A stretch of 64,000 nucleotides of DNA from Clostridiales bacterium. GTDB taxonomy: Bacteria > Bacillota > Clostridia > Christensenellales > Pumilibacteraceae. This document shows, in pieces, positions 23,156 to 63,754 of the stretch (positions are counted from its first letter, which is position 1; every line of letters begins with the position of its first letter). The DNA is taken from assembly GCA_029066805.1 (NCBI GenBank), contig JAIEFT010000013.1:1167-65166 (forward strand), in the 5' to 3' direction. The notes under the pieces were generated by a model that made no database searches, was not told where the DNA came from, and saw only the letters and a program-made list of their open reading frames with translations. Both the position numbers and the translations under genes were made by a program.

Positions 23156-23169
23156 AGTATTTGCGGCAA

Positions 23170-24429: not shown

Positions 24430-24542
24430 ATTTAACCTCCGATAGCTAAATTGTTAGCAATCCGTCGGATATTTAAACAGCAAATTTTTTTGCTAATAGG
24501 GTAGATTTTTTGCGACAGGCATGATACAATATTAATATCTAT

Positions 24543-25994: not shown

Positions 25995-26130
25995 TTAAGA
26001 ATGCAGAATGCAGAATTAGAAAATAAGAATTGGACTCTTCCCCTTCGCACAGAGACAAAAGGATTTGCGCGCGGTGTGCTATGTTTGTCACTCCGAACAA
26101 GCGAAGCTCGGTGAGGAATCTAATCCTTTT
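25995..26130 (+). repeat. family B element
   Basis: ttaagaatgcagaatgcagaattagaaaataagaatt directly after the stop codon, then tttgtcactccgaacaagcgaagctcggtgaggaatctaatcc. Confidence 0.75.
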
Positions 26131-26229
26131 TCTTTCGTGCAGTGAGGCTACTTCTCGAGAGTAATAACCGCTTTATCTTTATATAATTTTTGGCGTTTTT
26201 ATTCGGAATTTTCCTTGAAAGAGGAAAAT

Positions 26230-26652
26230 TTTTTTATACCCTCACGTGGCGCTAAACCGATGGTTTAGTAAATAAGGATTTTTGTATAAAAAGCTCGGAG
26301 CGGAAAAATTTTGTAGCAAGATAATAAAGTGTGATTTTGTATAAAATTTTTAGACTTTTGTGAATGCAGAATTAAGAATGCAGAATGCAGAGTAAAGCGG
26401 TTGAGACTCCTCGCTGCGCTCGGAGTGACAAAAAAGTAATGAAGCATTTTAAAAATTCTTTTTGTCCTACGTAGCAGCCGTAGGCTATTTCGAGCAACGC
26501 GAGAAATCTCATCCTTATTCTCTTAATTCTGCATTCTTAATTCTTAATTTTCCTCGGCGTTCCCATTCAAAAATTTTTTAGGACAAGCATAGTCTTTGCA
26601 TACCTTACCGTTAGACTAAACCGTCGGTTTAGTAAATCAAGATTTTTTGACA
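26230..26652 (-). repeat. composite ~415-bp repeat, copy 2 (inverted relative to copy 1)
   Basis: Its reverse complement aligns with 15891-16300. Palindromes at 26252-26268 (1 mismatch) and 26616-26632. The internal family B palindrome is larger than in copy 1. Confidence 0.8.
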
Positions 26653-26777
26653 TTTTTTTCGGTATTAAATTCGCTCACGCAAGTGCCTATATAAGCGAGT
26701 TAGTCCATTCTTGTGAAAAATTATGTCACCTAAAAAGCCGAGCTATTATGCTCGGCATTTTAGGCGTAATAAGTAAT

Positions 26778-26927
26778 TTATTTTACGGTGTTGGACTTTT
26801 TGCTTTGAGTGCGCGAAGCCGTCTTGCTGCTCTTGGTAACAGAACTGTCGGACTGAACATTGCTGCCGGACTTTTTAGAACCACAGCAGGTGCTCTTTTT
26901 GGTAGCCGTCTTTTTGGTGTTAGCCAT
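26778..26927 (-). CDS. 49-aa highly basic Ser/Lys/Thr-rich protein (not in ORF track)
   Basis: GAGGAGGAG SD 7 nt before the ATG. MANTKKTATKKSTCCGSKKSGSNVQSDSSVTKSSKTASRTQSKKSNTVK, ending in TAA. Confidence 0.5.
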   Translation of the reverse strand: MANTKKTATKKSTCCGSKKSGSNVQSDSSVTKSSKTASRTQSKKSNTVK

Positions 26928-27132
26928 TTTCTTACTCCTCCTCTAAGAATATGTACTTACCCGTGCGGGTATCGCTCCGCGGTTTTGCGGTTGCGTATTT
27001 TTAGTTTGCGCGGATTGCTGCGGATTATGCAGAGCAATGGCGAAAATCGGACTATAATGGAATAATTGCATGCAAAAAATGAAAATGCAACCGTAAGTTG
27101 CGCAAAAAAATGATATTGCAAACCGAAATTGG

Positions 27133-27161
27133 TTGAAGTTTATGCTGTGCTACTTTATAAT
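27133..27161 (+). promoter_or_regulatory. sigma-70-type promoter
   Basis: TTGAAG, 17 nt, TATAAT, 30 nt upstream of ATG 27191. Confidence 0.6.
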
Positions 27162-27190
27162 ACTTGTATGATTTTTGTCGGGAGGCACAA

Positions 27191-28195
27191 ATGCATATAG
27201 CAAAAAATTTGCAGTACTTGCGTAAGCGAGACAAGATAACGCAAGAGGATCTGGCGGAAAAACTGAATGTGTCGCGCCAGTCTGTATCCAAATGGGAAAC
27301 GGGCGAGGCGTATCCGGAAACAGAAAAGCTGCTCGCCATATGCGATCTGTTTGACGTGTCGTTGGACGGACTTATGCGAACCGATCTGTCTGTAGAGCTT
27401 GTGAACACCAAAGACGATATATCCGATAAAACTCAATCGTCGGGCGAGCTCGGTAAGAATGGCGCGGACGCCCAACCCGAAACTACAGAGCATGCGATCT
27501 TTGCCGAGCATATAAACAAGTTTTCGCGCGGGATAGCGATAGGGGTCATGCTAATACTTTTGGGCATTGCGGTCTGCATAGCTATAAGCGGCTATGCGTT
27601 TACGCTAAGCGGATCGACCGCCGAGCTGACAAGCGTGATGAGCGGAGTAGCTGTTATATTGTTTACGGCGGTCGCGGTATTTCTGTTTGTGTTTAACGGA
27701 CAAAAGCACGATGCGTTCAAAAAGAATCATCCGCTTATAGAAAAGCCGACAGACACTACGCACCGAAATTTTCCGACGATTATGGCGGGGCTTGTATCCG
27801 GAATACTGGTCGACGTGATATACTTGATAACTACGACTTCGCTTATTGACGCTGACGTTATCAAAACATCAAACAAAGATATGGCGTATTGTTATGTTAC
27901 GGCGGCTTTCATGGCGGTATTGGCATTTATAATAGGCGGGCTTGTGTATATGGGTATCCAACATAGCAAGTACGACGTAAAAATATACAATAATGAAATA
28001 CGCCATATAATGAACCCTACGCCGAAGGACAGAATAGCAAGCGCGGCTTGCGGCGCGATAATGATGACCGCAACGGCAATATATTTAGTTATCGGGTTTG
28101 TCGGTAATTATTGGCATCCCGGCTGGGTCGTATTTCCGGTAGGCGGGATTATTTGCGGAATAATTAATACAATTTTTAAAGCAAAAGAAAAATAA
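27191..28195 (+). CDS. XRE-family HTH domain fused to a multi-pass membrane domain
   Basis: ITQEDLAEKLNVSRQSVSKWETGEAYP, then about 6 TM segments. Start at ATG 27191 behind GGGAGG. Confidence 0.8.
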   Translation: MHIAKNLQYLRKRDKITQEDLAEKLNVSRQSVSKWETGEAYPETEKLLAICDLFDVSLDGLMRTDLSVELVNTKDDISDKTQSSGELGKNGADAQPETTEHAIFAEHINKFSRGIAIGVMLILLGIAVCIAISGYAFTLSGSTAELTSVMSGVAVILFTAVAVFLFVFNGQKHDAFKKNHPLIEKPTDTTHRNFPTIMAGLVSGILVDVIYLITTTSLIDADVIKTSNKDMAYCYVTAAFMAVLAFIIGGLVYMGIQHSKYDVKIYNNEIRHIMNPTPKDRIASAACGAIMMTATAIYLVIGFVGNYWHPGWVVFPVGGIICGIINTIFKAKEK

Positions 28196-28198
28196 ATA

Positions 28199-28274
28199 AA
28201 TGCAGAATTAAGAATAAAGAATGCAGAATTATAATAAGGTTGGGATTTCTCGCTTCGCTCAAAATGACAAAAAA
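28199..28274. repeat. family B element
   Basis: aatgcagaattaagaataaagaatgcagaatt, then aaggttgggatttctcgcttcgctcaaaatgacaaaaaa. Confidence 0.7.
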
Positions 28275-28402
28275 CAATCGAATTTTCATATTTTGTATGT
28301 GCAAAATAATGAAAAATGCGCATTTCCGTAAAATTTCGGTAATGCGCATCTCTGTTAATAGGCGATTTTTAAATTAATTAAAAATTAAAATAAATTAAAT
28401 AA

Positions 28403-28927
28403 TTAATAATTTTTTTCGTAATTTTCAATACATTTTTTAATTATTTCTATTGCGTGTTTTTTGTGGCAAATTTCTTTGACCGTTGTTGTTTTGTGCTCGA
28501 GCACTTTGTAGACCTCGAAAAAGTGCATCATTTCGTCGAAAATGTGTTGGGGCAGCTCGTGAATATTTTTAAAGTCCTTATACGTCGGGTCGTTGACCGG
28601 GACGGCTATTATCTTTTCGTCGAGATCGCCGTCGTCAATCATCTTTATCACGCCTATAGGCTCGCAAGTGATCAGCGTCATGGGATAAATTATTTCGTTG
28701 CACAGGACAAGCACGTCCAACGGGTCGCCGTCGTCTGCAAGCGTGCGCGGAATAAACCCGTAATTGGCGGGGTAGACGGTGGAAGTGTACAAAACCCTAT
28801 CCAACCGCAGTAAGCCCGTTTGCTTATCAAGCTCGTATTTTGCCTTGCAGCCTTTCGGAATTTCTATAAGCGCGTCAAATTGCGTTGAGGTAATTCTGTC
28901 TTTGTCGATATCGTGCCAAATATTCAT
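28403..28927 (-). CDS. ppa: inorganic pyrophosphatase (family I)
   Basis: EIPKGCKAKYELDK...YPANYGFIPRTLADDGDPLDVLVL. Start at ATG 28927 behind GGAG. Confidence 0.93.
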   Translation of the reverse strand: MNIWHDIDKDRITSTQFDALIEIPKGCKAKYELDKQTGLLRLDRVLYTSTVYPANYGFIPRTLADDGDPLDVLVLCNEIIYPMTLITCEPIGVIKMIDDGDLDEKIIAVPVNDPTYKDFKNIHELPQHIFDEMMHFFEVYKVLEHKTTTVKEICHKKHAIEIIKKCIENYEKNY

Positions 28928-28999
28928 AAGTAACTCCATTTTGATGTTTTAAAAAGTATATCACAATAATTAATAAATATCAATAATTTTATCAAAAAC

Positions 29000-29035
29000 A
29001 AAAACATCCCCTTTAAAAACAAGGGGATGTTTTTG
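29000..29035. terminator. bidirectional terminator-like hairpin
   Basis: acatcccctt-taaaaac-aaggggatgt flanked by A-runs and T-runs on both strands. Confidence 0.5.
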
Positions 29036-29077
29036 GTGTCGCAACCACGCTGGCTGTAAGCCGCGATTTAATTATAC

Positions 29078-29093
29078 TACAGATATATCTGTA
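29078..29093. promoter_or_regulatory. candidate operator upstream of the XRE gene
   Basis: Perfect 16-bp palindrome TACAGATATATCTGTA, 58 nt upstream of ATG 29151. Confidence 0.5.
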
Positions 29094-29150
29094 AGTAAAG
29101 ACTTTTTACAGAATTTTATGTAACATATTAGAAAAAAGGGAATAGTAATA

Positions 29151-29345
29151 ATGAATTACGGAGAAGCCCTAAAACACCAAAGAGAGATAAGAAATTTAAG
29201 TCAAACGGAGCTTGCAAGAGCGACGGGGCTAAAACAGCAAATGATAAGTCATTGGGAAGCCAATAAAGGATTACCTAATATTGATTTTTGTGTAAGACTT
29301 GCGGAGTATTATGATATAAGCTTAGACGAGCTTGTCGGGCGATAA
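29151..29345 (+). CDS. XRE-family HTH transcriptional regulator (64 aa)
   Basis: LSQTELARATGLKQQMISHWEANKGLP. Confidence 0.85.
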   Translation: MNYGEALKHQREIRNLSQTELARATGLKQQMISHWEANKGLPNIDFCVRLAEYYDISLDELVGR

Positions 29346-29445
29346 GACAAATATAATTTATTATCCTAAAAAATCGAGAAAAAATAGCGCACTATTCTTC
29401 AAAACGAAAATAGTGCGCTACTTGTATATTCAATGCAATAGAAAT

Positions 29446-30327
29446 TTATATTCGCGCGTTTTTGGCGGTTACGGTAAACAAATTGGAAATGTTTTTGTCG
29501 CACAGCCTGGAGAACACCGCTTCGCCGTAGCGGGCGAGCATGTCGTTGGGTGCAAGGTTGGAAGTGATGACGGTGTTTTTCTTCCTGAGCCACCGCTCAT
29601 TTATTATTGTATAAAAATATTCGCGAGTAATATTTTTGAGCACGGTTTCGGTGCCGAGGTCGTCTATCACCAACAGGTCGCACTCAAGCATGGGCGTAAA
29701 CAGGTCGCGGTAATCGTCGATTGCAAATTGCGTGTGGTAGTCCTTGGCGCGCTTTACCATGTCGAACGCGCTGACCGTGACGGTAGCCGCGCCGCGAGAC
29801 AGCATCTCTGTAGCTATCGCCGAGGCGAGCATTGTCTTGCCCGTGCCCGCACTGCCTATAATAATAAAGAAAGGCTTTTTATTGTCGGGATATTCGGAAA
29901 TATATTCCTCTGCCTTTGCGTAAAGCTTGGAAATCGCTTTGGGCGCGGTGGCTTTTGCCGTCGCAAAGTCTACTTGCGGCAAGATCAGATTTTCGGCGTT
30001 AGATTGTATCACGCTTTTAACCACGCACTTGCAATACTTGCCGTTTGCATAACCTGTGTCATGGCACGCCTCGCAGTGGTAGGGCGGATTGAGTATATCT
30101 TTGCTTATCCCCACGCGGCGAGCGTTTTTTTCAAGCTCCTCGCGCGCTTTATCTATATTGTTAGGCAGCTTTTGTGCCTTTTTTACCGCTTCTTCCTGAT
30201 AAAATGCATTGGCGGCGCGAAGCCCCTCGTCGGAAGCGAGCGCTCTGCGCCAAATATCCAGTCCGCTGTCCTTTTCTTCGCGGCGGCGGTCGGTAATTTC
30301 TTTAACTGCGCGTTGGTAGGCATTCAT
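29446..30327 (-). CDS. DnaI/DnaC-like helicase loader ATPase
   Basis: N-terminal Cys cluster CEACHDTG..CKC and Walker A GSAGTGKT; LLVIDDLG. Start trimmed to ATG 30327 (GGAGA SD), because the track ORF reads through repeat 30357-30480. Confidence 0.85.
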   Translation of the reverse strand: MNAYQRAVKEITDRRREEKDSGLDIWRRALASDEGLRAANAFYQEEAVKKAQKLPNNIDKAREELEKNARRVGISKDILNPPYHCEACHDTGYANGKYCKCVVKSVIQSNAENLILPQVDFATAKATAPKAISKLYAKAEEYISEYPDNKKPFFIIIGSAGTGKTMLASAIATEMLSRGAATVTVSAFDMVKRAKDYHTQFAIDDYRDLFTPMLECDLLVIDDLGTETVLKNITREYFYTIINERWLRKKNTVITSNLAPNDMLARYGEAVFSRLCDKNISNLFTVTAKNARI

Positions 30328-30356
30328 TATATTGTGTCTCCTAATTACAGAAGTTT

Positions 30357-30480
30357 TGAAGGGGCAGGCGCGCGTCAGGTGGGCAACAGTTGGCGAGGCG
30401 GTGACGGGAGTGTAGAACCACCTACATGACCAAACCGCCGAACCAAACGTAGCCCGCATCACGCGATGAATGCACCTTCA
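30357..30480 (-). repeat. family A element (124 bp)
   Basis: Minus strand: tgaaggtgcattcatcgcgtgatgcgggctacg...ggtcatgtaggtggttctacactcccg...tgttgcccacctgacgcgcgcctgccccttca. It has terminal inverted repeats. Confidence 0.8.
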
Positions 30481-30483
30481 AAC

Positions 30484-31899
30484 TCAGTCATCATCCTCTG
30501 TGATTCGCGTGAACATACTGTTAAGCTGCTCCTCGGTGTACCGCTCGAATACCACGCCCGTAGGCGCGGTCGGCTGTTGCGTGTTGCCCGTCGGCGGGGC
30601 GGCGGACTTGGCTTTGCTCACCTCGGTAATTCCGTCGTTATGCCAAGATTGAAGAACGGCGTTTATGTACGCGAATGGGTTGGCTTTGTCTGCGGAAATC
30701 TCGGCGGCGTAGTCGATAAGCGCCTGCGGCATTGCCCACTTTTCCGCCCAGTTTGCGTAGTACGCGCGCTGAATATCCTTGACCGCGCCCTTAATATTAA
30801 GAGTTTTAAACAGTTTTTCTATTTTCGCGTCGAACCGATTTTCGTGGTCAACGCTATCGCGCACCTGCTTTTCGGTGGTAAGTCCGCGCTCGAACAGGTC
30901 GCGGATAACTGCGTCGAGGTCGGATAACCGCTTGATGTCCTTTCTCATGCAATAATCGGCCGCGGCTATGATAGCGTTCGGCTCGAAGCCGAGACCGAGC
31001 CACGGCTTGATATACGCGGTGATTTCGGGATCTACGTTATCATAGTATAATCCAAGTGCCTTATTCACGGCTTTGGTCAGCTTGTACAGGTTTTTGCGGT
31101 CTTCCTCGTACTTGTCTATCTGTTCGGCGGTGGTAAGCCCGAGCTCGTAGTAACCCGTCAGCTTGGCGTCTATTGCCGCCGCCCCGCCGCGCTTTACGTT
31201 TTGCGCGACGTGGTAAATGACGTCCTTGTCGAATTTGTAAGTCATTTTCCATTTTTTATAGAACTGAACCGCTTCGTGATCGGGGTGCTTTCCGCCGAGC
31301 ACGCGGAGTAGCTCGTTATAGTAAACGCCGTATTCGTCAAGTCGTTCGCCCACGTCGTCGAATGTGCGGTAGCCGTCGGCGGCGAGGTTGCGCGCAACTG
31401 TGGTTATGTACGGGCAGGACACGTTGTCGCCCTTTAGGTCTACGCAGTACTTGACTATAAGCACCATCGCTTGCCATTCGAGGTCGAGCTTTTCCATGAG
31501 CGCGTAATATTCGTTGTATTCGTTTGGCGAGATTTGCCGCGCGGCGATATATAATTGTGCTTGACGGTTGAACTCGCGGTACTTATCCACGTCGTATTTT
31601 TTTATTTTGGGACGGGCGTTGCGCGGCGAGAAATAGCAGATATCGTCGCCAAGCCTGGACATAAGTCCTTGCTCCGTCCAGTAATCGATAGCGGCGGATA
31701 CCGTATGCTCGTCCAAATCCAAGCGGCGCGCAAGCCTATCGACGCTGTCGTCGGCGTCGCTCTTGCGCGCGGCGAGCGAAAGTCCGTAAAGGTAGACCTT
31801 TACGTAATCGCCGTCGGCGTACGGCATATACTCGACAATGAATTTATTTTCGACGGTGATAGCGCCGTCAAGACTTGCTTCCGACGACAGTTTAAACAT
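30484..31899 (-). CDS. replication initiation and membrane attachment protein (Bacillus DnaB-type, DnaD-domain)
   Basis: 471 aa directly upstream of the loader, as in the Bacillus dnaB-dnaI operon as I recall it. Repeated DnaD/DnaB_2-like helical segments. Confidence 0.7.
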   Translation of the reverse strand: MFKLSSEASLDGAITVENKFIVEYMPYADGDYVKVYLYGLSLAARKSDADDSVDRLARRLDLDEHTVSAAIDYWTEQGLMSRLGDDICYFSPRNARPKIKKYDVDKYREFNRQAQLYIAARQISPNEYNEYYALMEKLDLEWQAMVLIVKYCVDLKGDNVSCPYITTVARNLAADGYRTFDDVGERLDEYGVYYNELLRVLGGKHPDHEAVQFYKKWKMTYKFDKDVIYHVAQNVKRGGAAAIDAKLTGYYELGLTTAEQIDKYEEDRKNLYKLTKAVNKALGLYYDNVDPEITAYIKPWLGLGFEPNAIIAAADYCMRKDIKRLSDLDAVIRDLFERGLTTEKQVRDSVDHENRFDAKIEKLFKTLNIKGAVKDIQRAYYANWAEKWAMPQALIDYAAEISADKANPFAYINAVLQSWHNDGITEVSKAKSAAPPTGNTQQPTAPTGVVFERYTEEQLNSMFTRITEDDD

Positions 31900-31916
31900 G
31901 TACGCGCCTCATTTGC

Positions 31917-31945
31917 TTGAATTATTTTCGGATTTGTATTATAAT
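31917..31945 (+). promoter_or_regulatory. sigma-70-type promoter of sbcDC
   Basis: TTGAAT, 17 nt, TATAAT. Confidence 0.6.
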
Positions 31946-32026
31946 ACCACTAAACAAAAAAATTATCAACAGTTTTTTTCATAATAGGATTGCACAAAAC
32001 GAGCGGACAAAGAGGAGATACCTAAA

Positions 32027-54748: not shown

Positions 54749-55678
54749 ATGCCGATAGATTTTACCAAAAAATTCAACGTCGGATTGACGCTTAAGACGT
54801 CGCTGCGTACCGCCGACAAGTTTTTCGAGCGGTACGGTTCGTACATAAACGAGGTGTATTTTTCCGCGCCGCTCGGCAATCGCTTCCACACGCGCAGGGG
54901 TATACAGCAACAGCTATCCAAAAAACGCATAATAGATAAGTTTTGGAAGCTGCTCGGCTTAGTCAAAAGCCACGGTATCAGACTGGAAATGGTGCTCAAC
55001 ACAAACATGCTGTCCGAGCAGGATATAGAAAGCGCGCGCGACGTGCTTGTCAAACACAACGTAGATATAGATTCGGTGTGCTGTATGGAAGAGTACTACG
55101 ACGCAGTGAAACGTGTGTTCCCCGGCAAGGATTACATCTGTAGCTTCAATAATGTTTTCAGATCGGTCGCCGATATACAAAAGGTACAAAACGAGTACGA
55201 CAGCTATGTGCTCGGCGGCGCGCTCATTCGCGCTAACGACGCGTTTCGCTGCGTGCGCGAACAAAAGCACGCCAAAGTTGTGTTGCTCCTCAACAACGGC
55301 TGTTCGTTCAATTGCCGCGGCTGCCGATCGGCACAGCACTGCAAGCCGGTGTTTATGGCTAACCTGAAAAAGCATTCCGTTGATTATCTGTATGCGTTAC
55401 AGAGCGTGTTGCCGCCGGAAATATACGACGGCAGTATTGACGTGGACAGCGTCGATTACTTTAAGATATCCAATCGTAGCAGCAAGCTTAGCTATCTTAA
55501 AAAGTGTATGGATAGCTATATGACAAATAGCACGCTCAAGTATTTGCGCCGCGGGTTTATGAACTACTCGCTGTGGGCGCGCATGGGGCATTTTTGGTCG
55601 AGGTACATAAAAATCCGCCGCAAAAAAATGCTCGCTTATAAAGCGGAAATACTCGGGCATGAGCTTGAGCTTAAATAA
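54749..55678 (+). CDS. uncharacterised protein with Cys cluster CSFNCRGCRSAQHC; weak peptidase-U32-family resemblance
   Basis: 309 aa. Alternating beta/alpha-like pattern (EVYFSAPLG...HGIRLEMVLNTN...DIDSV) and CX3CX2CX5C at residues 185-198. The family assignment is tentative. Confidence 0.45.
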   Translation: MPIDFTKKFNVGLTLKTSLRTADKFFERYGSYINEVYFSAPLGNRFHTRRGIQQQLSKKRIIDKFWKLLGLVKSHGIRLEMVLNTNMLSEQDIESARDVLVKHNVDIDSVCCMEEYYDAVKRVFPGKDYICSFNNVFRSVADIQKVQNEYDSYVLGGALIRANDAFRCVREQKHAKVVLLLNNGCSFNCRGCRSAQHCKPVFMANLKKHSVDYLYALQSVLPPEIYDGSIDVDSVDYFKISNRSSKLSYLKKCMDSYMTNSTLKYLRRGFMNYSLWARMGHFWSRYIKIRRKKMLAYKAEILGHELELK

Positions 55679-55806: not shown

Positions 55807-56424
55807 TTGATTGACAGAGCGGTGTACGAAATCCCGACCGATCTTGCGGAATATACGGAGCGTATTCGCAGCGGCAACTGGCAGCCCGACGGGCTGACCC
55901 CGCCAAGCGACGGCAATGTTTATACCGCGGCGCTTTTGGTTTTGCGCGGCAGGCTTCGGAGGAAAAGAGCGGTCAAGCGCTTGTTCAAAACGCTTATCGC
56001 ATCGCGTTACATCCGTGATTGTAAGTTAAAGTTTAGGCTGTGCTCCAAACAACCGGCGTACATGACCGACAAAGGGCTTGTGTGCTTTTCGCTCGGCAGT
56101 ATATTCGGCGGCGATGGCGCGCATGTGCTCAAGCTTGTTTTTCACGAAGTCGCGCATTTGTGGCTTAGCGAACAAAACGGTTACGACAGTCTCAAGGCGC
56201 TGCAAAAAGCCTTTCGTGGCGAAAACGGCAACAATGTTCCCGCTGTGTTTTTGCCAATAGAATACTATGCGGTATCGCTGTCGGCAATAATGCTGGAAAA
56301 GCTTTTGTGCGTTCTGCCAAGCGGAACGGAAGCGGCAGATATCACCAATCAAATCAACTGCGAAAAATCCAAACTTGTCGATTTTCGCGACCTGTCCGAT
56401 TGCGGACCAAAGGAGAAACCATGA
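55807..56424 (+). CDS. HExxH-motif protein (putative zinc metallopeptidase)
   Basis: VFHEVAHLWLSEQNGYD. Start uncertain (TTG 55807 or GTG 55822, no clear SD). The stop overlaps the next ATG (ATGA). Confidence 0.55.
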   Translation: MIDRAVYEIPTDLAEYTERIRSGNWQPDGLTPPSDGNVYTAALLVLRGRLRRKRAVKRLFKTLIASRYIRDCKLKFRLCSKQPAYMTDKGLVCFSLGSIFGGDGAHVLKLVFHEVAHLWLSEQNGYDSLKALQKAFRGENGNNVPAVFLPIEYYAVSLSAIMLEKLLCVLPSGTEAADITNQINCEKSKLVDFRDLSDCGPKEKP

Positions 56425-56567
56425 AAGACAACAAGACCACTCAAAAACCTGAGGATTGTGACGAGCTTCTCAAGCAATACTATGCGCAGGTAGACAGCGA
56501 CGACGATGTACATACATATCATATCGACGGATATACTTACGGGGACTATACCGACAGCTGCTGCTAA
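56421..56567 (+). CDS. 48-aa acidic Asp/Tyr-rich peptide ending in Cys-Cys (candidate precursor peptide)
   Basis: AAAGGAGAAACC, then ATG. MKDNKTTQKPEDCDELLKQYYAQVDSDDDVHTYHIDGYTYGDYTDSCC. Same frame as track ORF 56307..56567, but the SD-preceded ATG is at 56421. Confidence 0.65.
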   Translation: MKDNKTTQKPEDCDELLKQYYAQVDSDDDVHTYHIDGYTYGDYTDSCC

Positions 56568-56583: not shown

Positions 56584-57570
56584 ATGTTTGGATATTTCAG
56601 ACCGTATGATGCCGGTCTTACTTGCAGTCAACTAAGGACTTTTCGCGCGTATTATTGTAGACTGTGCTGCGGCTTGCGCAGTATGGGCGGACAGCGTGCG
56701 CGGTTTTTAACAACGTTTGACGCAACCGTATACTATATGATTTACAGCATGGCGAGCGGGTTACCCACACCGCCATCTTTTCGTTGCGAAAAACTTTCCA
56801 AAGCGGGCATGCGCATATCGGAAAAGGACGAGCTTGCCATGCGGTTTGTGCGCGGCATACTTGTAGCACTCGGCGAAAAAATGCGCGACGATCGCTTGGA
56901 CGGCGATAGATTCAAAGCGAATATCCTAAAGCTGATGGTAGGCAAAATCATAAAAAAGGCGCAGGAGTCCGAGCCCAATCTGGCAAGGGTCACTTACGAA
57001 GGGATAGAGCGCATCAATCGTTTGCAAGAGCGCAAGGCGGCGGTGCTCGATTTGCTTGACGCTTACGGGGAAACCATGGCTGACAGCCTGCGCTGTATAG
57101 GCGAAGTGCCTAAAAAATATGAGGAACTTCAAAAGGCGATCGCCGCTTGGACGTTCTATGTGGATATACTTTGCGATTACGACGAGGATGTTAAAACAAA
57201 CAAGTTCAATCCGCTAAAGCAAGACGATTCGCCTACGCTTGAAGTTTTGTTCAACAACGAGTACGCCATGCTTTTCGAGCTTAACCGCACAGTCTGCGGC
57301 AGAGTGGTGGACGCACTTAACGCGACCAAAAACCAAAGCACGGAATGGTACGCTATTCGCGGCATACTCACTCACGCCATGGTAAGCGTCGTGCCCGATA
57401 TATTGGAAGGCAAGGACGTCAAGTTCAAGTACTTCCGCGAGCTAACCAAAAACATGCGCGCCATGAAAAAGAGTCGCAAAAGGTTTGACGAGGCGGACAG
57501 GTATGTTCAACGCACGACGGGCGAGGAGCGGAAAAACGGAAAGGGAGAAAAAGGTGGAGAATCGGATTAG
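56584..57570 (+). CDS. DUF5685-like protein
   Basis: N-terminus MFGYFRPY...YYCRLCCGL is the pattern I associate with DUF5685. Asp-rich motifs DDRLD (56887-56901) and DYDED (57175-57189). Confidence 0.6.
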   Translation: MFGYFRPYDAGLTCSQLRTFRAYYCRLCCGLRSMGGQRARFLTTFDATVYYMIYSMASGLPTPPSFRCEKLSKAGMRISEKDELAMRFVRGILVALGEKMRDDRLDGDRFKANILKLMVGKIIKKAQESEPNLARVTYEGIERINRLQERKAAVLDLLDAYGETMADSLRCIGEVPKKYEELQKAIAAWTFYVDILCDYDEDVKTNKFNPLKQDDSPTLEVLFNNEYAMLFELNRTVCGRVVDALNATKNQSTEWYAIRGILTHAMVSVVPDILEGKDVKFKYFRELTKNMRAMKKSRKRFDEADRYVQRTTGEERKNGKGEKGGESD

Positions 57571-57573
57571 AAT

Positions 57574-58722
57574 ATGGACAGAATAAACATTATTGTAAAG
57601 GTCACGGAGGCGTGCAACCTCAGGTGCAAATATTGCTATAACAAGGATTCGGACTACTCGGCGCAAGTGCTCGGCTTGGAGCGGTTTACCAAGCTTATAG
57701 ATATCGTCGCACCGTACCGCAAGGACATACACATAATCTGGCACGGCGGCGAGCCGCTCACAGCAGGATTAGAGTACTTTGAAAACGCCATGCGCATAGA
57801 GGACGCAGCGCAAACCAAATATCGCGTAACTATAAAGAATCAGATTCAGACCAACGGCACGCTCATTGACAAAAAGTGGATAGAGTTGTTTAAAAAATAC
57901 GACATAAAGCCGGGTATATCGTTTGACGGACTGCAAAACGACAAGTACAGGCAGAGGACGGAAGATACACTAAGGGCGTTTAAGCTTCTCGCCAAAAACG
58001 GTATGCGGTCGGCAGCCATGGCTGTTGTCGCCGACGACGATTACGATATTTTGGAAAACTACAAGTACTTTGCCAAGCTCGGCATCAATGTTGAATTCTC
58101 GCCCGTGTTTGAGGAAGGCGGGGCGGCGGAAATGGGCAGCCGTGCACAGCGGTTTGCCGAAAATATGACGGAGCTTTTCGACTACTGGCTGTACGATAAA
58201 AACGGCGTGGACGTACGCTTGTTCGCTACGTATGTGTCAATGGCGCTTGGTACGAATTTTCGCATTTGCAATAATTCATCCTGTCACGGCAAATATTTGG
58301 GCGTTGCGCCCGACGGCACAATCTACAACTGCGGCAGATACTCGGTCACGCAGTATCCGTTCGGGAATGTGGACGACTTTTCCGATCTTAACGAGATCTA
58401 CCGTTCGGACGGGTTCATGGGGCTTGTTGCGGGCGCGTTCGAGCGTCGGCAAAAGTGCAGGGAGTCTTGCGAGTACTTCAACCTTTGCAGCGGCGGCTGC
58501 ACCGACTGCGCTTTAATAGAAAACGGACTCAACAATATTCCGCAACAGAGCTGCATGTATTTTAAAACGCTGTACCCGCATATCAAGGCGGCGGTCGATA
58601 AGATTCTTGCGGAAAAACAACCGCTCGACGGCTTTAATCCATTTTTCCGCAGAGCGGTAATAAAGAGCTTTGCAGTCACCGACGACGCTACGGGCGCAGA
58701 CATTCAGGATAAGTACAAATGA
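57574..58722 (+). CDS. radical SAM / SPASM-domain enzyme (AnSME-like maturase)
   Basis: CNLRCKYC (CX3CX2C) near the N-terminus. C-terminal SPASM pattern CHGKYLGVAPDGTIYNC ... CRESCEYFNLCSGGC ... C. Confidence 0.88.
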   Translation: MDRINIIVKVTEACNLRCKYCYNKDSDYSAQVLGLERFTKLIDIVAPYRKDIHIIWHGGEPLTAGLEYFENAMRIEDAAQTKYRVTIKNQIQTNGTLIDKKWIELFKKYDIKPGISFDGLQNDKYRQRTEDTLRAFKLLAKNGMRSAAMAVVADDDYDILENYKYFAKLGINVEFSPVFEEGGAAEMGSRAQRFAENMTELFDYWLYDKNGVDVRLFATYVSMALGTNFRICNNSSCHGKYLGVAPDGTIYNCGRYSVTQYPFGNVDDFSDLNEIYRSDGFMGLVAGAFERRQKCRESCEYFNLCSGGCTDCALIENGLNNIPQQSCMYFKTLYPHIKAAVDKILAEKQPLDGFNPFFRRAVIKSFAVTDDATGADIQDKYK

Positions 58723-60218
58723 GCGAAACAACAAGAATACTGCTCGGCTACATTTTGTCGTTTGCATACATGATTTTTGTAATGCTTGTCGGCGAGGTGT
58801 TAAGCCGTAAGCTCGGAGTGGAAAGGGAAATATCACGCAAAATTTCGCACCTGCTGTCAAGCGCGTGCTGGATCATCTGCTATTTCTTTTCCGGTCCGAC
58901 ATACCATACGGTAATCATCAATGCCGCGGCGCTCATGCTGGTCGCGGCGGGCGAGTTCAGCGGCAAACTAAAGTCGGCGGTGCGCGAGGGCGACGGCGGC
59001 GAAGAGCGAAAGTCGAGCAAGGGATTCGGCATGAGCTTTTTTTGCTTTAGCACGTTAGTTGCAATGTGCATAACAGTGTTTGCGTACCCGCAGCTTTTTG
59101 CCACTACCGGCGTGGCATACTACAGCCTCGCGTTGGGCGACGGGCTTGCGCCTATCGGTAAGCGAATAGCCGGCAAGTATAACATCAAGGTGTTCGGCAA
59201 TAAAACGCTCGTCGGCATGATAATGGTGTTTGTCGTGTCGTCGCTCGTTGCCATGACGATAAGCCTTATCTTCGGTCTGGGCTATGACGCGCTGTTCATA
59301 ATATCGCTTGGTGCGCTCGCCGCGGTTGCCGAGCTGATAGGGACGCGCGGTACGGATAATATTCTGGTCGAGTTTTTTGTGTTCGCATATGCGGCGATGT
59401 TTGCTTTCGGCGTAGTGCCGCAGGCGCTCGAGGTAGCCATAATAATAGCCGCGCCCATGTTTGTGGTGGACTCGGTCAAGCAGACGCTCACGCCTGCCGC
59501 CAATATAATATCGTATCTGTACTTGCTTGTTTCGGTGTTTTGCTTGGGATATGTGTTCTTGGTCACGGCGGTATGCCTGTTCGCCGCGGAAGCGGTAATT
59601 TCGCGCGTGACCGGCAAAATATTCAATAGCAAAAATGAGGACGGCGACGCGGAAAAGTCAACGCGCGGCGGCTGGCAGATTTTGGTAAACAGTGTGGTAA
59701 TCATGCTGTTTACACTGCTGCTCCGTGTGCTCGACGTAAGGGCGCTCGCGTTTGTCGCGTTTGCCGTTTTGGTGGAAGAGTTTACCGACAGCGTCGCTTC
59801 GGACGTCGGGCGGCTCGCCAAAAAACCGCCGATAGATATACTCAGGTTCAGGCGCGTCAAGGCGGGCGTAAGCGGCGGAGTAAGCCTGCTTGGGTCTTGT
59901 GCCGCAGTTATTTGCGCGGCGGTCGGTGCGGCATTGCCGTTTGTATTCTTTGCATTCGACATAAGAGCGTACTTTGTAATACTTGGATGTGCGGTGCTCG
60001 GCATGGTTATAGACAGCGTGCTCGGGTCGTCGATTCAGGCGTTATATAAGTGCTCGGTGTGCGGAAAGACGACGGAAAGATCCGAGCATTGCGGTACGGG
60101 CGCAGAGCTTGTCAAGGGTGTAAGGATTGTCAATAACAGCATGGTAAATCTGTTAAGCGCGGTCACAACCGCCGCGATTGCCGTGACGATTTTGATGTGC
60201 TGCGGGATTGCGATGTGA
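58719..60218 (+). CDS. fused polytopic membrane protein: VTE5/dolichol-kinase-like N-half + DUF92 (VTE6-like) C-half
   Basis: N-half: SRKISHLL, LGDGLAPIGKRIAGK, GNKTLVG. C-half: RGGWQILVNS, EEFTDSVASDVGR, GVSLLGS, IDSVLGSSIQ, plus zinc-ribbon CSVCG..HCG. ATGA overlap with the rSAM gene. Confidence 0.7.
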   Translation: MSETTRILLGYILSFAYMIFVMLVGEVLSRKLGVEREISRKISHLLSSACWIICYFFSGPTYHTVIINAAALMLVAAGEFSGKLKSAVREGDGGEERKSSKGFGMSFFCFSTLVAMCITVFAYPQLFATTGVAYYSLALGDGLAPIGKRIAGKYNIKVFGNKTLVGMIMVFVVSSLVAMTISLIFGLGYDALFIISLGALAAVAELIGTRGTDNILVEFFVFAYAAMFAFGVVPQALEVAIIIAAPMFVVDSVKQTLTPAANIISYLYLLVSVFCLGYVFLVTAVCLFAAEAVISRVTGKIFNSKNEDGDAEKSTRGGWQILVNSVVIMLFTLLLRVLDVRALAFVAFAVLVEEFTDSVASDVGRLAKKPPIDILRFRRVKAGVSGGVSLLGSCAAVICAAVGAALPFVFFAFDIRAYFVILGCAVLGMVIDSVLGSSIQALYKCSVCGKTTERSEHCGTGAELVKGVRIVNNSMVNLLSAVTTAAIAVTILMCCGIAM

Positions 60219-60970
60219 TGGGAAAACGCGAAAAACAACTGATAGAAATAGAAAACAGCGACATCGGCATTTTGCGGTTTTGCTTGAAAGTGCTGTACGA
60301 GCACGACAACGACGAGCTTGCTTGGCGGCTGATTGAACGGTTCGGCGGAGTGTCGGGAATTTTCAGCGCGTCTCACGAGGAGCTGATGCAGATCGACGGC
60401 ATGACGGACAGAGTGGCAACGTTTTTCACTGTTATGCGCCCTTTGCAAAGACAGGCGCAGCTTCGCGCCGTAAAGGACTTTAAGGTGACGTCCGAGCGCG
60501 ATATGGCGGAATACGCCGCGGTGTATTTTATGAACGAGTACAACCCTGCGGACGTGTGCGCGTGCTTGGATAAAAGAGGCAGGATTATCTGCGCCGAACG
60601 ACTGGGCAAGGAGGAGTGCGTGCGCGAGATTGCTGCGCTCGCGTGCAAAAGAAACGCGCAAAAGATTGCGCTATTGCGGTTTGAGCCGAGACTGAACAGA
60701 AAGGCAGTGCTGCCCGCGCCCGAAACTCAAAAGACGTTGATGCGGATTACAAAGCTGATTGGGTCGCTGGATATGGACTTTGTGGATTATGTCGAGTATG
60801 CGAAAAATATGTTCTTTTCGCTAAGACGCGCAGTGAGCGGGGATATCGGCGTGTATCATGTTTTTAACGCAAAAGAGGAAAAGTATAAACTGTGGAATAG
60901 TGTTTCCGACGACATTGCCAAGTACTACTCTGTGTGCGTTGCCCACGCGATTGAGCAAGGACTTAAATAA
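60218..60970 (+). CDS. RadC-like protein with degenerate JAB/MPN motif
   Basis: FGGVSGIFSASHEELMQIDGM (HhH-like) and ...CVREIAALACKRNAQKIALLRFEP where RadC normally has HNHPSG. Start at ATG 60218 (TGATG overlap). Confidence 0.6.
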   Translation: MGKREKQLIEIENSDIGILRFCLKVLYEHDNDELAWRLIERFGGVSGIFSASHEELMQIDGMTDRVATFFTVMRPLQRQAQLRAVKDFKVTSERDMAEYAAVYFMNEYNPADVCACLDKRGRIICAERLGKEECVREIAALACKRNAQKIALLRFEPRLNRKAVLPAPETQKTLMRITKLIGSLDMDFVDYVEYAKNMFFSLRRAVSGDIGVYHVFNAKEEKYKLWNSVSDDIAKYYSVCVAHAIEQGLK

Positions 60971-61078: not shown

Positions 61079-61154
61079 CGAGGTGTAGCGCAGTTGGTAG
61101 CGCGCATGGTTCGGGACCATGAGGCCGCGAGTTCGAGTCTCGCCACTTCGACCA
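61079..61154 (+). tRNA. tRNA-Pro (anticodon CGG), CCA encoded
   Basis: Hand-folded cloverleaf: acceptor CGAGGTG/CACTTCG (C1-G72), D stem GCGC/GCGC, anticodon stem CATGG/CCATG with loop TTCGGGA, T arm GCGAG-TTCGAGT-CTCGC, A73, CCA. 76 nt. Confidence 0.9.
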
Positions 61155-61259
61155 GCAGGGCAAAAGCCCACGTAAAAAGGCTATCCTTAACCACAGGACA
61201 GCCTTTTATCATGTGTTTTGACCACTCGCGCGCTCATGATAAATCGTTTTCGGTACGTT

Positions 61260-61282
61260 TTAGTGTCAAAATTAGTGTCAAA
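61260..61282 (+). repeat. tandem 11-bp direct repeats TTAGTGTCAAA x2 (candidate integrase arm sites)
   Basis: 61260-61270 and 61272-61282, with a third degenerate copy aatgtcaat at about 61303. Lies between the tRNA and the int stop. Confidence 0.5.
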
Positions 61283-61306
61283 TACCGGAGCGAATAAACG
61301 GTAATG

Positions 61307-62440
61307 TCAATCGTCGGAGTCCGACGGATCTTCGGCGAACAGAGAATCGAGCTTAGCCGCCTCGGATAAACTTAATTCACGACTAACATCACTGTAAATA
61401 TCAGCCGTAGTACTAATCTCACTATGCCCAAGCCATGTCTGAACTACTTTTATAGGCACTCCTGCTTCTAACGCCCTTGTGGCGAACGTATGCCGAAGAT
61501 CATGCAAGTTATGAGCCGGACAAAACTTTTTAAACTGCCGAGATACATAATCGGACTTAAAATCAAACAGCTTCCCGATGGATGGCAGCACGGATAAAAT
61601 TTTTGATATAGTGTCAAACAAGGGTATTACCCGGTCCGACAATTCAGTTTTTGTGCCGCGAATATGTATTGTCTTTTGTTGCTCGTCTATATCCTCGCGG
61701 CGAACTGCCAAAGCTTCATTCCGGCGACAACCACTATATAGACAAAACAAGTAATAATATTCAAGCTTGTCCCCGCGAATAGCTTGAATAAACTCCGACT
61801 GCTCGGCTACTGAGAGCGCCATGCCTTTATCCCGCTTAGCCTTTACGCGCTTTACGGCAAGCATAGGATTGTAATCTATAAGCCGCTCGGCAACCGCTTG
61901 CCGAAACGCTCCTGTCAAAAGATTATGCACGCTCTCCCGCGTTCGAATAGCTTCTATAGAGCTTAACAGTTTTTGTATATCCATAGGCTTGACTACGGCA
62001 AGCGATATAGCGTTATCTATATGAGGAATAACATGCAGCCGAATATTACGCTCCATTTGCTTGTAAGTCTCGGCGGCGACTTCGCCTTGCTTATATGTGC
62101 GAATAAACTCAGTCAGCCATTCTATGAGAGTGTACTCTGAGGATACGGCTTTGTCTCTAAGCTCTATAGCCTTATTGAGCTTTGTCAAACAATCATCATA
62201 AGCGCGAGCATAAACAGAACGCTGTTTCCCATCCTGCATATACCGCCCCTCATACCGTCCGTCCCTGCGCTGCAATATGCAGCCTTCTTTTGGTTTTTTC
62301 CTACGTGGTGTCATGATTAAGATTTTATCCCTCCGTTCCTGTACTTCGATGTCGATATCGTTCAAAAGCGACACGAGCTTAAACGCTATCTTGTTGAGCT
62401 GTTCGGCATATTGCCGAATTAGTTGTTCATTTGTATTCAT
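61307..62440 (-). CDS. int: tyrosine-type site-specific integrase
   Basis: C-terminal HDLRHTFATRALEAGV...LGHSEISTTADIYSDV (R..HxxR..Y). Start at ATG 62440 behind GGAGGT. Confidence 0.9.
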   Translation of the reverse strand: MNTNEQLIRQYAEQLNKIAFKLVSLLNDIDIEVQERRDKILIMTPRRKKPKEGCILQRRDGRYEGRYMQDGKQRSVYARAYDDCLTKLNKAIELRDKAVSSEYTLIEWLTEFIRTYKQGEVAAETYKQMERNIRLHVIPHIDNAISLAVVKPMDIQKLLSSIEAIRTRESVHNLLTGAFRQAVAERLIDYNPMLAVKRVKAKRDKGMALSVAEQSEFIQAIRGDKLEYYYLFCLYSGCRRNEALAVRREDIDEQQKTIHIRGTKTELSDRVIPLFDTISKILSVLPSIGKLFDFKSDYVSRQFKKFCPAHNLHDLRHTFATRALEAGVPIKVVQTWLGHSEISTTADIYSDVSRELSLSEAAKLDSLFAEDPSDSDD

Positions 62441-62485
62441 ATACTTTACCTCCATGGGCAAAGTATAACGATATAAATTTAAACT

Positions 62486-63754
62486 TTAAAACGGATGCTC
62501 AAGCTTATCAATTTCGCGACATTCCTCGAGCCATGCCCTAAATAAACGCTTGGATATAAACGTAATATTCTTATTCTTTAAATCATGCATTAGCTTTTCC
62601 AGCTCCACAGAAGTATTTACTTCGGGTTTTTCAAACAGCCTTAGCCTTGCTAAAACTTCGGCATAAGCTTCCTCGACACTAGCATCCACCTCGTCGTTTT
62701 CGGCAACACGGTACAACAAACCATACCCTTGCATGACCTTGCAGCGATACAACACGCTATACAACACTTTAAACTGTTCATAAGTAAGAAACGCCGCGCC
62801 GTCTTTGGTAAGCTTAGTCACATACTTAAATACCTCGTGCCAACCGTCGTCCTCAACTTCATTAAGTGTGCAGCTGTAGCCGTCCGGCATAGTGGATATG
62901 TTCTCAAGATTGACCTTTGTATTATTTAAAGCTAAAAACCATATCTTTTGTATGAGAATCTCAAGCTCGGAAAATATACGCTCAAGCTTGCCGTGATTGA
63001 AGCTGTAGCAATTAACGAACTCCTTATAAAGCGGCAAGTCTTTTTTTAAAAGTATGGCACTATGTATATGCGGATGAAAGTCCGTAGGATTCGTGACTAT
63101 TTCCAAACACCGAACCGCGCCACCATATCCGTACTGCGCAAAATCCACACCTTTTATTTTTGCGTCGCCGGAGAAGTAGCGAATAAGCTTTTTAAAAGCA
63201 TTAAACATACTGCCCACTGTTTTTTCTAATACGGTGCCGCCAACGTTTGGAACAGTTAAAGTCAAGTGATATAAATCATATGTATTACGCAGTTCGTCAA
63301 ACACCGGAGTGAATCGCATAAGCCGGGAAGCTTGCTTAAGGTGCTGACAGTTCACGCAGAATTTATCATGACAGAGCTGTACGTTCTTTACGTCAAAAAC
63401 TCGCTGAAGGCGGTAGTGATCACCAAACCAAAACTTGTTGCAATTATGTACACGCTCGCCAAGAGTCCGATACTTATTAAGATTTGTCTCGGTATATAGC
63501 CGCTCGTAATACTCGCTGTAAATATCATTGAAATCGCGATTATGCGAAACGGTATCAACATAATCTTCGGTAATCTTGAGTTCTTCCGGAATTTCATAAT
63601 ACAAATCATTGCCGACAGCTCGTTCGGCTTGACGCTCGTGCTTAAGCTGCTCTGCTTGTGCCGACAAAATCTTCCGTTTACGCGCACCATTCTCGCGTGC
63701 CTTTGCAAGCCTTGCTGCACGTTGTGCGGATTTCTTGAACTCCCCAAGTTTCAT
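62486..63754 (-). CDS. rep: rolling-circle replication initiator (Rep_1/pC194-pUB110-like HUH protein)
   Basis: HUH motif DFHPHIHSAILL and downstream EVFKYVTKLTK (catalytic Tyr motif). GGAGA SD. Confidence 0.75.
   Translation of the reverse strand: MKLGEFKKSAQRAARLAKARENGARKRKILSAQAEQLKHERQAERAVGNDLYYEIPEELKITEDYVDTVSHNRDFNDIYSEYYERLYTETNLNKYRTLGERVHNCNKFWFGDHYRLQRVFDVKNVQLCHDKFCVNCQHLKQASRLMRFTPVFDELRNTYDLYHLTLTVPNVGGTVLEKTVGSMFNAFKKLIRYFSGDAKIKGVDFAQYGYGGAVRCLEIVTNPTDFHPHIHSAILLKKDLPLYKEFVNCYSFNHGKLERIFSELEILIQKIWFLALNNTKVNLENISTMPDGYSCTLNEVEDDGWHEVFKYVTKLTKDGAAFLTYEQFKVLYSVLYRCKVMQGYGLLYRVAENDEVDASVEEAYAEVLARLRLFEKPEVNTSVELEKLMHDLKNKNITFISKRLFRAWLEECREIDKLEHPF

Follow-up and report, generated by a model that had tools for sequence, protein, structure and literature searches.

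A Cys-tailed small peptide conserved with radical SAM/SPASM, DUF5685 and prenol-kinase-like genes: a candidate precursor of a new peptide family in anaerobic gut Firmicutes

The window analysed here is a 64-kb stretch of contig JAIEFT010000013.1 from a Clostridiales bacterium. At positions 56421–56567 (+) it has an open reading frame (ORF) for a 48-aa peptide, MKDNKTTQKPEDCDELLKQYYAQVDSDDDVHTYHIDGYTYGDYTDSCC, with 10 Asp, 6 Tyr and 3 Cys residues. By comparison of homologous loci, this is a constrained peptide of the precursor type that is locked to a set of genes for a DUF5685 protein, a radical S-adenosylmethionine (SAM) enzyme, a membrane fusion protein and an HExxH protein. The peptide is probably the precursor of a new family of peptides that are made on the ribosome and modified after translation (RiPPs) from anaerobic gut Firmicutes, which would be cross-linked by the radical SAM enzyme and would also undergo an isoprenoid step. 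No curated model in Pfam, NCBIfam, PADLOC or PHROGs matches the peptide, and the system is undescribed in the literature searched on DUF5685/PF18937, DUF92 with radical SAM, RiPP Cys prenylation and phytol kinase with RiPP.

The peptide gene and its family

The ATG of the peptide gene at 56421 overlaps the TGA (56422–56424) of a 205-aa gene (55807–56424) with the HExxH motif HEVAH. An earlier note, made from the letters of the window, had described a 48-aa peptide with this composition, and its translation and counts are exact. Of the start context it described, the Shine-Dalgarno (SD) site and the overlap of the ATG with the HExxH stop codon are both present, but the SD spacing is 4 nt and not the 6 nt it gave. 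Its description of the peptide as unannotated is incorrect. GenBank has the exact product as 'hypothetical protein K2O04_01335 [Clostridiales bacterium]', and public gene callers predict an identical product on several metagenome contigs. The parts of the gene are as follows.

56409–56416 (+): Shine-Dalgarno sequence AAAGGAGA, 4 nt 5' of the ATG, from direct sequence reading
56421–56489 (+): peptide residues 1–23, leader, with a variable basic N-terminus and then ELLKQYYAQ (L17, Y20, Q23), from the alignment
56490–56510 (+): peptide residues 24–30, acidic spacer VDSDDDV, from family comparison
56511–56567 (+): peptide residues 31–48 and stop codon, core HTYHIDGYTYGDYTDSCC, with His31, the triplets and the C47-C48 tail

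GGAG-type sites are also found 5' of the orthologous ORFs. A scan of all six frames of the window, over stop-to-stop segments of 20 aa or more, finds a Cys-Cys end in the peptide ORF alone. A mechanically called 86-aa ORF with a GTG start (56307–56567) was rejected; its extension overlaps the HExxH gene, and the orthologues all start at an ATG or TTG after an SD site.

The ratio of non-synonymous to synonymous differences per site (pN/pS) for the peptide is 0.09–0.18, as determined from Nei-Gojobori counts against two orthologues (L002 and L003; loci carry L numbers throughout). These orthologues are 75–79% identical to the window peptide, have equal length and show the same overlap with the upstream gene. 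A comparison of codons 14–48 between the window and L002 shows 14 synonymous and 3 non-synonymous differences. The differences are 7 synonymous to 1 non-synonymous in the leader part (codons 14–26), and 7 to 2 in codons 27–48. By these counts the ORF is under strong purifying selection. Because of the SD site and ATGA overlap, the low pN/pS and the presence of the same product in public gene calls, the ORF is almost certainly a real translated gene.

Homologous loci were gathered through the neighbouring DUF5685 protein from metagenome assemblies, species-representative genomes and JGI metagenomes. Together with two members added by the phmmer search below, these give 21 distinct peptides across ~17 lineages, and the hosts are Christensenellaceae, Pumilibacteraceae, Erysipelotrichaceae and unclassified Clostridia of goat and buffalo caecum. 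A phmmer search with the peptide against 1.84 billion representatives found only three clusters and added these two family members, and a word-indexed search gave only two matches. Wherever the upstream sequence is readable, one to three small ORFs of the peptide type are directly 5' of the DUF5685 gene, except in L026. Some of these ORFs were missed by gene callers and one starts with TTG. Down to ~35% identity, homologues have kept the reading frame together with the leader motif and the terminal Cys; frame-shifting of the ORF, which the earlier note had named as evidence against the peptide, is not seen among the 21 homologues.

An alignment of 14 members shows M1, Y20, Q23, H31 and the last two Cys to be invariant, and L17 nearly so. 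The Y..Q pair, the His and the Cys pair recur in all family peptides outside this alignment. The family layout consists of a variable basic N-terminus, a leader with [LI][LM]x[x]YxxQ as its motif, an acidic spacer, a core opened by His and a Cys tail. The spacer is acid-rich and 5–8 residues long in all members. The core is rich in His, Tyr and Asp and begins with the invariant His, and the tail has 2–4 Cys. The leader/core division drawn from the window alone is therefore borne out by the positions of L17, Y20, Q23, His31 and the terminal Cys-Cys.

Aromatic residues in the core had been seen to repeat with a period of three. This periodicity is real across the family, in the specific form aromatic-x-[D/N/E]. 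Such triplets occur 58 times in the cores, against 23.4 expected from composition-preserving shuffles. The pair Cys47/Cys48 is also conserved in the homologous loci. The window peptide has the triplets H34-I-D36, Y40-G-D42 and Y43-T-D45 between the invariant His31 and the C47-C48 tail. Individual peptides have 1–7 triplets, and the Cys count of 2–4 does not follow the triplet count. After the invariant His, 12 of the 21 peptides have the sequence H-x-Y. Trp is found in 4 of the 21, and there is no conserved aligned Trp column.

Two or three tandem precursor copies are present in L005, L023 and L033. In L033 (~150–780) three tandem precursors are 5' of a single DUF5685 gene and have the tails CCCC, CCSCC and CCC; the middle paralogue displays a triplet expansion, YSN-YAN-YSN-YSN-YSE. 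A variant precursor in L031 (~375–575) has an ordinary leader and core (…EQLLADYNGQVSGDGKHAYSETSHHDDGSG) followed by the extension CNLCNCISGLCNICACCTWCSSGDCCW, which is 27 residues long, Cys-rich, metallothionein-like or thioether-like, and ends in CCW.

The conserved gene set

Synteny was determined by tblastn and profile searches, and partner genes were scored only where a contig reaches far enough. Amid unrelated flanking genes, the peptide gene or genes are kept together with genes for the DUF5685 protein, the radical SAM/SPASM enzyme, a membrane fusion of ~490 aa and an HExxH protein of ~200 aa. The peptide, DUF5685 and radical SAM genes are found together in every locus that extends far enough, and all loci that reach further also have the kinase-like fusion. 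HExxH homologues are found in essentially all complete loci. In L005–L008 and L027 the fusion gene is on the opposite strand, 5' of the peptide. The Pfam and NCBIfam matches, together with the synteny, confirm that the peptide belongs to a conserved radical SAM/SPASM cassette, as had been proposed. In the window the cassette has the following genes in addition to that of the peptide.

55807–56424 (+): HExxH protein, 205 aa; H113, E114, H117 and E152 invariant in nine orthologues
56584–57570 (+): DUF5685 protein, 328-aa form; Pfam PF18937, 1.8e-25, aligned from residue 1
57574–58722 (+): radical SAM/SPASM maturase, 382 aa; Pfam Radical_SAM
58719–60218 (+): integral membrane fusion, 499 aa; DUF92 (PF01940) at residues 246–485, 6.3e-36

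Generic features of RiPP precursors are present, i.e., a short ORF beside and co-oriented with maturase genes, conservation, purifying selection, a leader/core pattern and tandem paralogues. PADLOC gives only generic radical SAM (viperin) matches on the cassette and PHROGs gives none for its proteins; on this outcome a defence system or phage module does not fit. The GC content of the cassette is 0.503 and that of the window 0.495, thus there is no compositional sign of recent transfer.

The radical SAM enzyme has the motif C14-x3-C18-x2-C21 and eight invariant C-terminal Cys, which fit a SPASM domain. It has no N-terminal RiPP recognition element (RRE), for which there is no room because the CX3CX2C motif begins at residue 14. 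The top NCBIfam models are DynA (167.0 bits, 5.6e-49; cut-off 450) and the anaerobic sulfatase-maturating enzyme (anSME) model TIGR03942 (166.8 bits, 7.3e-49; cut-off 349). The GrrM/OscB model gives 135 bits (2.5e-39; cut-off 310). Other models of three-residue cyclophane-forming enzymes (3-CyFE) give 117 bits for AmcB (cut-off 425), 94 for YhhB (445), 85 for XyeB (450) and 80.5 for FxsB (370). Among thioether-type models, PapB gives 113 bits (1.5e-32; cut-off 340), the SCIFF maturase 52 bits (425) and QhpD an E-value of 2.2e-16. The closest solved structure is the anSME 4k36 (2.7e-30), and CteB is matched at 4.7e-10. Because the best curated models are far under their cut-offs, the closest structure is an anSME and the match to the triceptide synthase ChlB is weak, the enzyme is placed by profile comparison in the anSME-like SPASM group, to which several cyclophane formers belong, as an unclassified member. 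The peptide is very likely the substrate of this adjacent enzyme.

The DUF5685 family has >3,300 sequence clusters and is mentioned in the literature searched only where hypothetical proteins of C. difficile are listed. In public gene calls the window protein starts 51 codons late, at the equivalent of position 56737, and is 277 aa long. Both the Pfam alignment, which begins at residue 1, and the conserved N-terminus (MFGY, CxxC) support the form of 328 aa. A comparison of 60 diverse members shows that D46, C68, D102, D106, D194, D198, D202 and N209 are invariant and that D103, C25, C28 and the N-terminal MFGY are nearly so. These residues form a DDxxD motif and a second Asp-rich motif. The AlphaFold2 model is all-alpha (pLDDT, the predicted local distance difference test, 88; pTM, the predicted template modelling score, 0.83), with both Asp-rich motifs at the C-terminal ends of long helices. 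Foldseek comparison of the model with the PDB returns almost only isoprenoid-fold enzymes: MoeN5 is first, followed by isoprenyl diphosphate synthases, UbiA, terpene synthases and Ord1. The modeled structure suggests that DUF5685 likely has an isoprenoid-synthase-like fold, and makes it a candidate isoprenoid-diphosphate-using transferase.

The peptide-linked DUF5685 proteins make up a tight clade of few members, and the bulk of the family has 20–25% identity to the window protein. Mainstream DUF5685 genes adjoin genes for Zn-ribbon and J-domain proteins, not radical SAM genes. The mainstream protein has ~280 aa and its neighbours are a Zn-ribbon protein of 131 aa and a J-domain (DnaJ) protein of ~215–234 aa, e.g., in L019 at 5595–7571, and this triad recurs in both mainstream lineages sampled (L016–L018 and L019–L020). 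A lone DUF5685 gene of the peptide-linked clade, 40% identical, is found at 8001–8909 of L026, a higher-GC Clostridia metagenome-assembled genome (MAG). It has no peptide, radical SAM enzyme or kinase nearby and could be a remnant or a copy that took on a different role.

The N-terminal domain of the membrane fusion (residues ~1–233) has the invariant motifs RK..H, DGxAP, K..G and E...DN. In one of nine orthologues this domain matches PF01148 (CTP_transf_1) at 9.9e-5. An hhalign comparison with E. coli CdsA aligns the signature GDGxAP...KTxxG with E = 6.8e-4 and a probability of 27%, and a PDB profile search with the domain is empty. DUF92 is the family of the plant phytyl-phosphate kinase VTE6. 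In plants, VTE5 and VTE6 form a two-step route from phytol to phytyl diphosphate (PMC11989935). The DUF92 domain and the weak CTP_transf_1 and CdsA matches make it plausible that the fusion is a prenol kinase/prenyl-phosphate kinase that converts a prenol to the prenyl diphosphate in two steps, with the first domain being the less firmly assigned.

Further lipid-related genes are seen in individual lineages. L027 has a cis-prenyl-diphosphate synthase gene (7582–8301; PF01255, 7e-61) with an 8-nt overlap at the radical SAM stop codon. In L022 a gene for an Rce1-like CAAX prenyl endopeptidase/CPBP protein (5471–6205; 1.6e-19) is 40 nt after the kinase gene. Pfam and NCBIfam searches of the cassette proteins show no alpha/beta Zn prenyltransferase of the Rab type (farnesyl- or geranylgeranyltransferase, FTase/GGTase) and no protein like the Rab escort protein (REP). 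The accessory gene set is unprecedented in the literature searched and probably isoprenoid-related.

The HExxH profile gives a weak match to proabylysin (4jiu) over the HExxH region (E = 0.036). The protein is a candidate leader peptidase of a minigluzincin-like type.

Proposed pathway and alternative explanations

In the proposed pathway, the leader would dock the peptide on the radical SAM/SPASM enzyme, which would abstract side-chain hydrogen and cross-link the core intramolecularly. Three-residue cyclophanes that join an aromatic residue to a C-beta would be the most plausible outcome, at H34-I-D36, Y40-G-D42 and Y43-T-D45 and possibly also at H31-T-Y33. The membrane fusion would phosphorylate a prenol twice to give a prenyl diphosphate. 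DUF5685 would bind the diphosphate through its two Asp-rich motifs and move the isoprenoid to the peptide, where the thiols of the invariant C-terminal Cys rank first as candidate acceptors. The HExxH protein would cut off the leader.

The earlier note had proposed three chemistries for the radical SAM enzyme, i.e., Cys-to-Asp thioethers, three-residue Tyr cyclophanes and a C-terminal Cys modification, and had called them mutually exclusive. They need not be, as modification could occur both in the core triplets and at the Cys tail. Sequence comparison does not distinguish among the three. The triceptide-like option is favoured because the aromatic-x-[D/N/E] triplets are real across the family, and cyclophane-type cross-links in the core are put forward tentatively.

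Triceptides are defined, and their His motifs described, in PMC11499958. Like the present peptides, the precursors of triceptide systems (HaaB, HtkB, YhhB, ChlB, OscB, XyeB) are short and have repeated aromatic-x-x triplets, including His- and Tyr-led ones. The maturase is likewise a SPASM radical SAM enzyme, and it is matched by the GrrM/OscB, AmcB, YhhB, XyeB and FxsB models. Unlike those systems, the maturase here is under every 3-CyFE cut-off with a weak match to ChlB, and position 3 of the triplet is acidic or Asn. The triceptide clusters compared have no counterpart of the Cys tail, DUF5685 or the prenol-kinase-like fusion.

Dynobactin with its maturase DynA, and likewise darobactin with DarE, is a second point of comparison, as DynA is the best curated model, although its 167 bits are far under the 450-bit cut-off. 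Dynobactin reportedly contains a His-x-Tyr cross-link, and this resembles the H-x-Y that follows the invariant His in over half of the peptides. The hosts here are Gram-positive gut anaerobes and the core is much more acidic, unlike dynobactin. Dynobactin clusters are not known to have a Cys tail or lipid-related genes. The anSME enzymes oxidise Cys C-beta at the recognition motif C/S-x-P/A-x-R. They provide the closest structure and score level with DynA, and like the maturase they have no N-terminal RRE and a full SPASM domain. The maturase differs in its 167 bits against the 349-bit cut-off, the motif is missing from the peptide, and the partner is a 48-aa peptide and not a sulfatase.

Peptide prenylation by enzymes of the isoprenoid-synthase fold is known for ComQ and PalQ, including on a C-terminal residue (PMC13290415; PMC10853753). 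In the ComQ/ComX and PalQ/PalX systems, as is predicted for the cassette, a small precursor gene lies beside the gene for an enzyme that is all-alpha, has Asp-rich motifs and resembles isoprenoid synthases in its fold. The C-terminal residue is the target of PalQ, and these systems, like the cassette, have no dedicated exporter (PMC13290415; PMC10853753). Ord1, the structural reference of the class, is among the Foldseek matches of DUF5685. As for differences, DUF5685 has no detectable sequence relation to polyprenyl synthases, the acceptor Trp is not conserved, and here a radical SAM enzyme and a prenol-kinase-like fusion belong to the system. A comparison with eukaryotic Rab geranylgeranylation (CC/CXC) and the CAAX/Rce1 pathway shows a similar C-terminal Cys-Cys(-Cys) tail, an Rce1-like gene in one lineage and a putative dedicated source of isoprenoid diphosphate. 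The likeness is one of motif only, as the cassette has neither an alpha/beta Zn prenyltransferase nor a REP-like protein. Set against the definitions of anSME, ranthipeptides and ComQ-type systems, the peptide system departs from every one of them in one or more of the features tested.

The suggestion in the earlier note that the -CC terminus may be prenylated, which the note itself ranked as pure speculation, gains independent support from the modelled DUF5685 fold, the kinase-like fusion and the lineage extras; a Rab-type prenyltransferase is absent. Attachment of an isoprenoid to the peptide is close to evenly balanced, and attachment at Cys is doubtful. Peptide or protein Cys prenylation is so far known only from eukaryotic enzymes, according to a 2026 review (PMC13290415).

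A number of observations weigh against the proposed RiPP with cross-linking and an isoprenoid step. The chemistry of the mechanism is inferred. The radical SAM enzyme is under the cut-off of every curated family, the models of anSME, a Cys/Ser oxidase, and of DynA match it equally well, and the solved triceptide synthase ChlB gives a weak match (2.4e-9) over the N-terminal part only. The Foldseek statistics for DUF5685 are weak, with a best E of 4.4e-3 (MoeN5) and TM values of 0.45–0.53. DUF5685 profiles give only spurious coiled-coil matches against PDB sequences, and hhalign finds no similarity between DUF5685 and E. coli IspA. For most DUF5685 proteins there is no link with peptides or with isoprenoid genes. 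Both the cis-prenyl synthase gene and the gene for the Rce1-like protein come from one lineage each, and Rce1-like/CPBP proteins are common among bacterial membrane proteins, so these genes are hints and not proof. The L031 extension ending in CCW is more like metal binding or thioether chemistry, and no conserved exporter or regulator was found with the cassette across the loci. The known peptide prenyltransferases of the isoprenoid fold act on Trp (PMC13290415), which is not conserved here.

Among the alternatives, a thioether peptide of the ranthipeptide or QhpC type survives best, and it is unlikely. The sulfurs of the C-terminal Cys would be joined to a beta or gamma carbon of the Asp, Asn or Glu residues upstream, and DUF5685 and the kinase would act later or elsewhere. 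The invariant tail of 2–4 Cys is preceded by several such residues, PapB (1.5e-32) and QhpD (2.2e-16) are among the NCBIfam matches, and the L031 variant has many extra Cys. However, the PapB, SCIFF and QhpD models score below DynA, anSME and GrrM, all far under cut-off, and CteB is matched at only 4.7e-10. The Cys spacing of freyrasin consists of Cx3D-type repeats, whereas the Cys here are contiguous at the C-terminus and lack such spacing. The number of Cys (2–4) does not track that of the acidic triplets (1–7), and the periodic aromatics and the invariant His are left unexplained. In comparison with ranthipeptides and sactipeptides generally, acidic acceptor candidates are present and the Cys are contiguous, and the maturase is outside the PapB, CteB, SCIFF and sactisynthase families and has no N-terminal RRE.

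It is rather improbable that the peptide is a scaffold for a small molecule or cofactor, as in mycofactocin, PQQ (pyrroloquinoline quinone) or 3-thiaglutamate. Only the C-terminal Cys would be transformed, by anSME-like C-beta oxidation and then prenyl transfer, and clipped off by the HExxH or JAB protease to yield a lipid-soluble compound derived from a thiol or an aldehyde. This explanation fits the terminal Cys-Cys as the most invariant core feature, the action of anSME, the closest solved relative of the radical SAM enzyme, on Cys C-beta, the one or two protease-like genes in the operon and the lack of a conserved exporter. A dedicated isoprenoid supply would also suit a membrane cofactor. 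However, L005, L023 and L033 have paralogues in tandem whose cores are diversified, with repeat expansions, a pattern usual for peptide natural products and not for cofactor scaffolds, the C/S-x-P/A-x-R motif is not in the peptide, and the distribution is sporadic and rare, with only three clusters in the 1.84 billion representatives.

An unmodified acidic peptide rich in His, Asp and Cys, e.g., a metal-binding or regulatory one whose co-transcribed enzymes use other substrates, is very improbable. The L031 composition is metallothionein-like and no neighbouring enzyme has a proven peptide substrate, but the strict co-location with the radical SAM and DUF5685 clades in differing contexts, the leader/core conservation pattern, the tandem precursor copies and the start that is translationally coupled to a peptidase-like gene argue otherwise. 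That the ORF arose by chance in intergenic or overlapping sequence and yields no product is effectively excluded by the conservation data: the ORF is short and the antisense frame over the same stretch is also open, but pN/pS is low, the SD site is conserved, and 21 homologues hold the frame, leader motif and Cys tail. The antisense frame itself was rejected as a gene, since the substitutions are at third codon positions of the + frame.

If the proposed RiPP pathway is true, the system would be a new RiPP family in under-studied gut anaerobes, including ruminant Clostridia MAGs, and would join radical-SAM cross-linking to isoprenoid lipidation, a pairing not found in the literature searched. 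It would give a first proposed function for the >3,300-member DUF5685 family and for bacterial DUF92 fusions, with possible bacterial peptide Cys prenylation. In its most specific form, a speculative one, this would be the first bacterial ribosomal peptide with an S-isoprenylated Cys-Cys(-Cys) tail, with DUF5685 as the transferase, supply by the kinase fusion or a cis-prenyl synthase, and a core rigidified by cyclophanes. That would represent a prokaryotic counterpart of Rab or a-factor lipidation. The system is small, with five or six genes.

Lineage-specific genes and flanking regions

Other features near the cassette have a more limited distribution or are of a predicted nature.

54749–55678 (+): 309-aa accessory protein, with invariant C185-x3-C189-x2-C192-x5-C198
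55768–55797 (+): promoter-like site TTGACA-18-TATACT, 11/12 matches in a consensus scan only, just 5' of the HExxH gene
60197–60970 (+): RadC-like JAB-domain protein, RadC at 4.5e-4 (Pfam) and 1.4e-10 (NCBIfam), both under cut-off; overlaps the end of the kinase gene

The promoter-like site is a candidate operon start. The 309-aa protein is found only in the window, L001–L011 and L024. It has no Pfam or NCBIfam family and a PDB profile search is empty, and its orthologues give weak Fer4_12 and Radical_SAM matches. Its alignment to the radical SAM enzyme is restricted to a 19-aa stretch with a strand and the CX3CX2C motif. The N-terminal half alternates beta and alpha elements, and the radical-SAM-like strand and CX3CX2C(X5C) are unusually late in the sequence, at residues 176–198. 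A single-sequence AlphaFold2 model has a pLDDT of 41 and is unusable. The protein is a probable Fe-S enzyme of no recognisable family; a U32-type Fe-S hydroxylase was considered but gained no support, and there is no Pfam match.

The JAB gene accompanies the cassette only in the window and its closest relatives L001–L004. Because it is operonic only there, it is regarded as a possible lineage-specific extra protease, and its membership of the cassette is uncertain. Upstream of the cassette, PepF, a 302-aa ORF and DnaB are conserved in close relatives only and do not belong to the system. A 428-aa protein of no Pfam family is encoded at 4101–5387 (-) in L027, just 5' of the kinase fusion in the operon divergent from the peptide; it is found with 94% identity in L032 and is missing from other lineages. 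In L013 and L014 a PLD-family gene, another lipid-related addition of a single lineage, follows the kinase gene, and that of L013 (7106–8824) has two domains.

Downstream of the cassette in the window are a tRNA-Pro gene (61079–61154, +), a Tn916-type tyrosine integrase (61307–62461, -) and Rep_1 (62486–63754, -). The GC content of 61079–63754 is 0.434, compared with 0.495 for the window, and this segment looks like a small integrative element at tRNA-Pro that is separate from the cassette. An integrase and a Rep-like gene are found at the equivalent relative place in L003. At 12001–32000 the window has a stretch of ~20 kb with a GC content of 0.42–0.47, compared with 0.50–0.54 elsewhere in the window, which may be a further acquired region.

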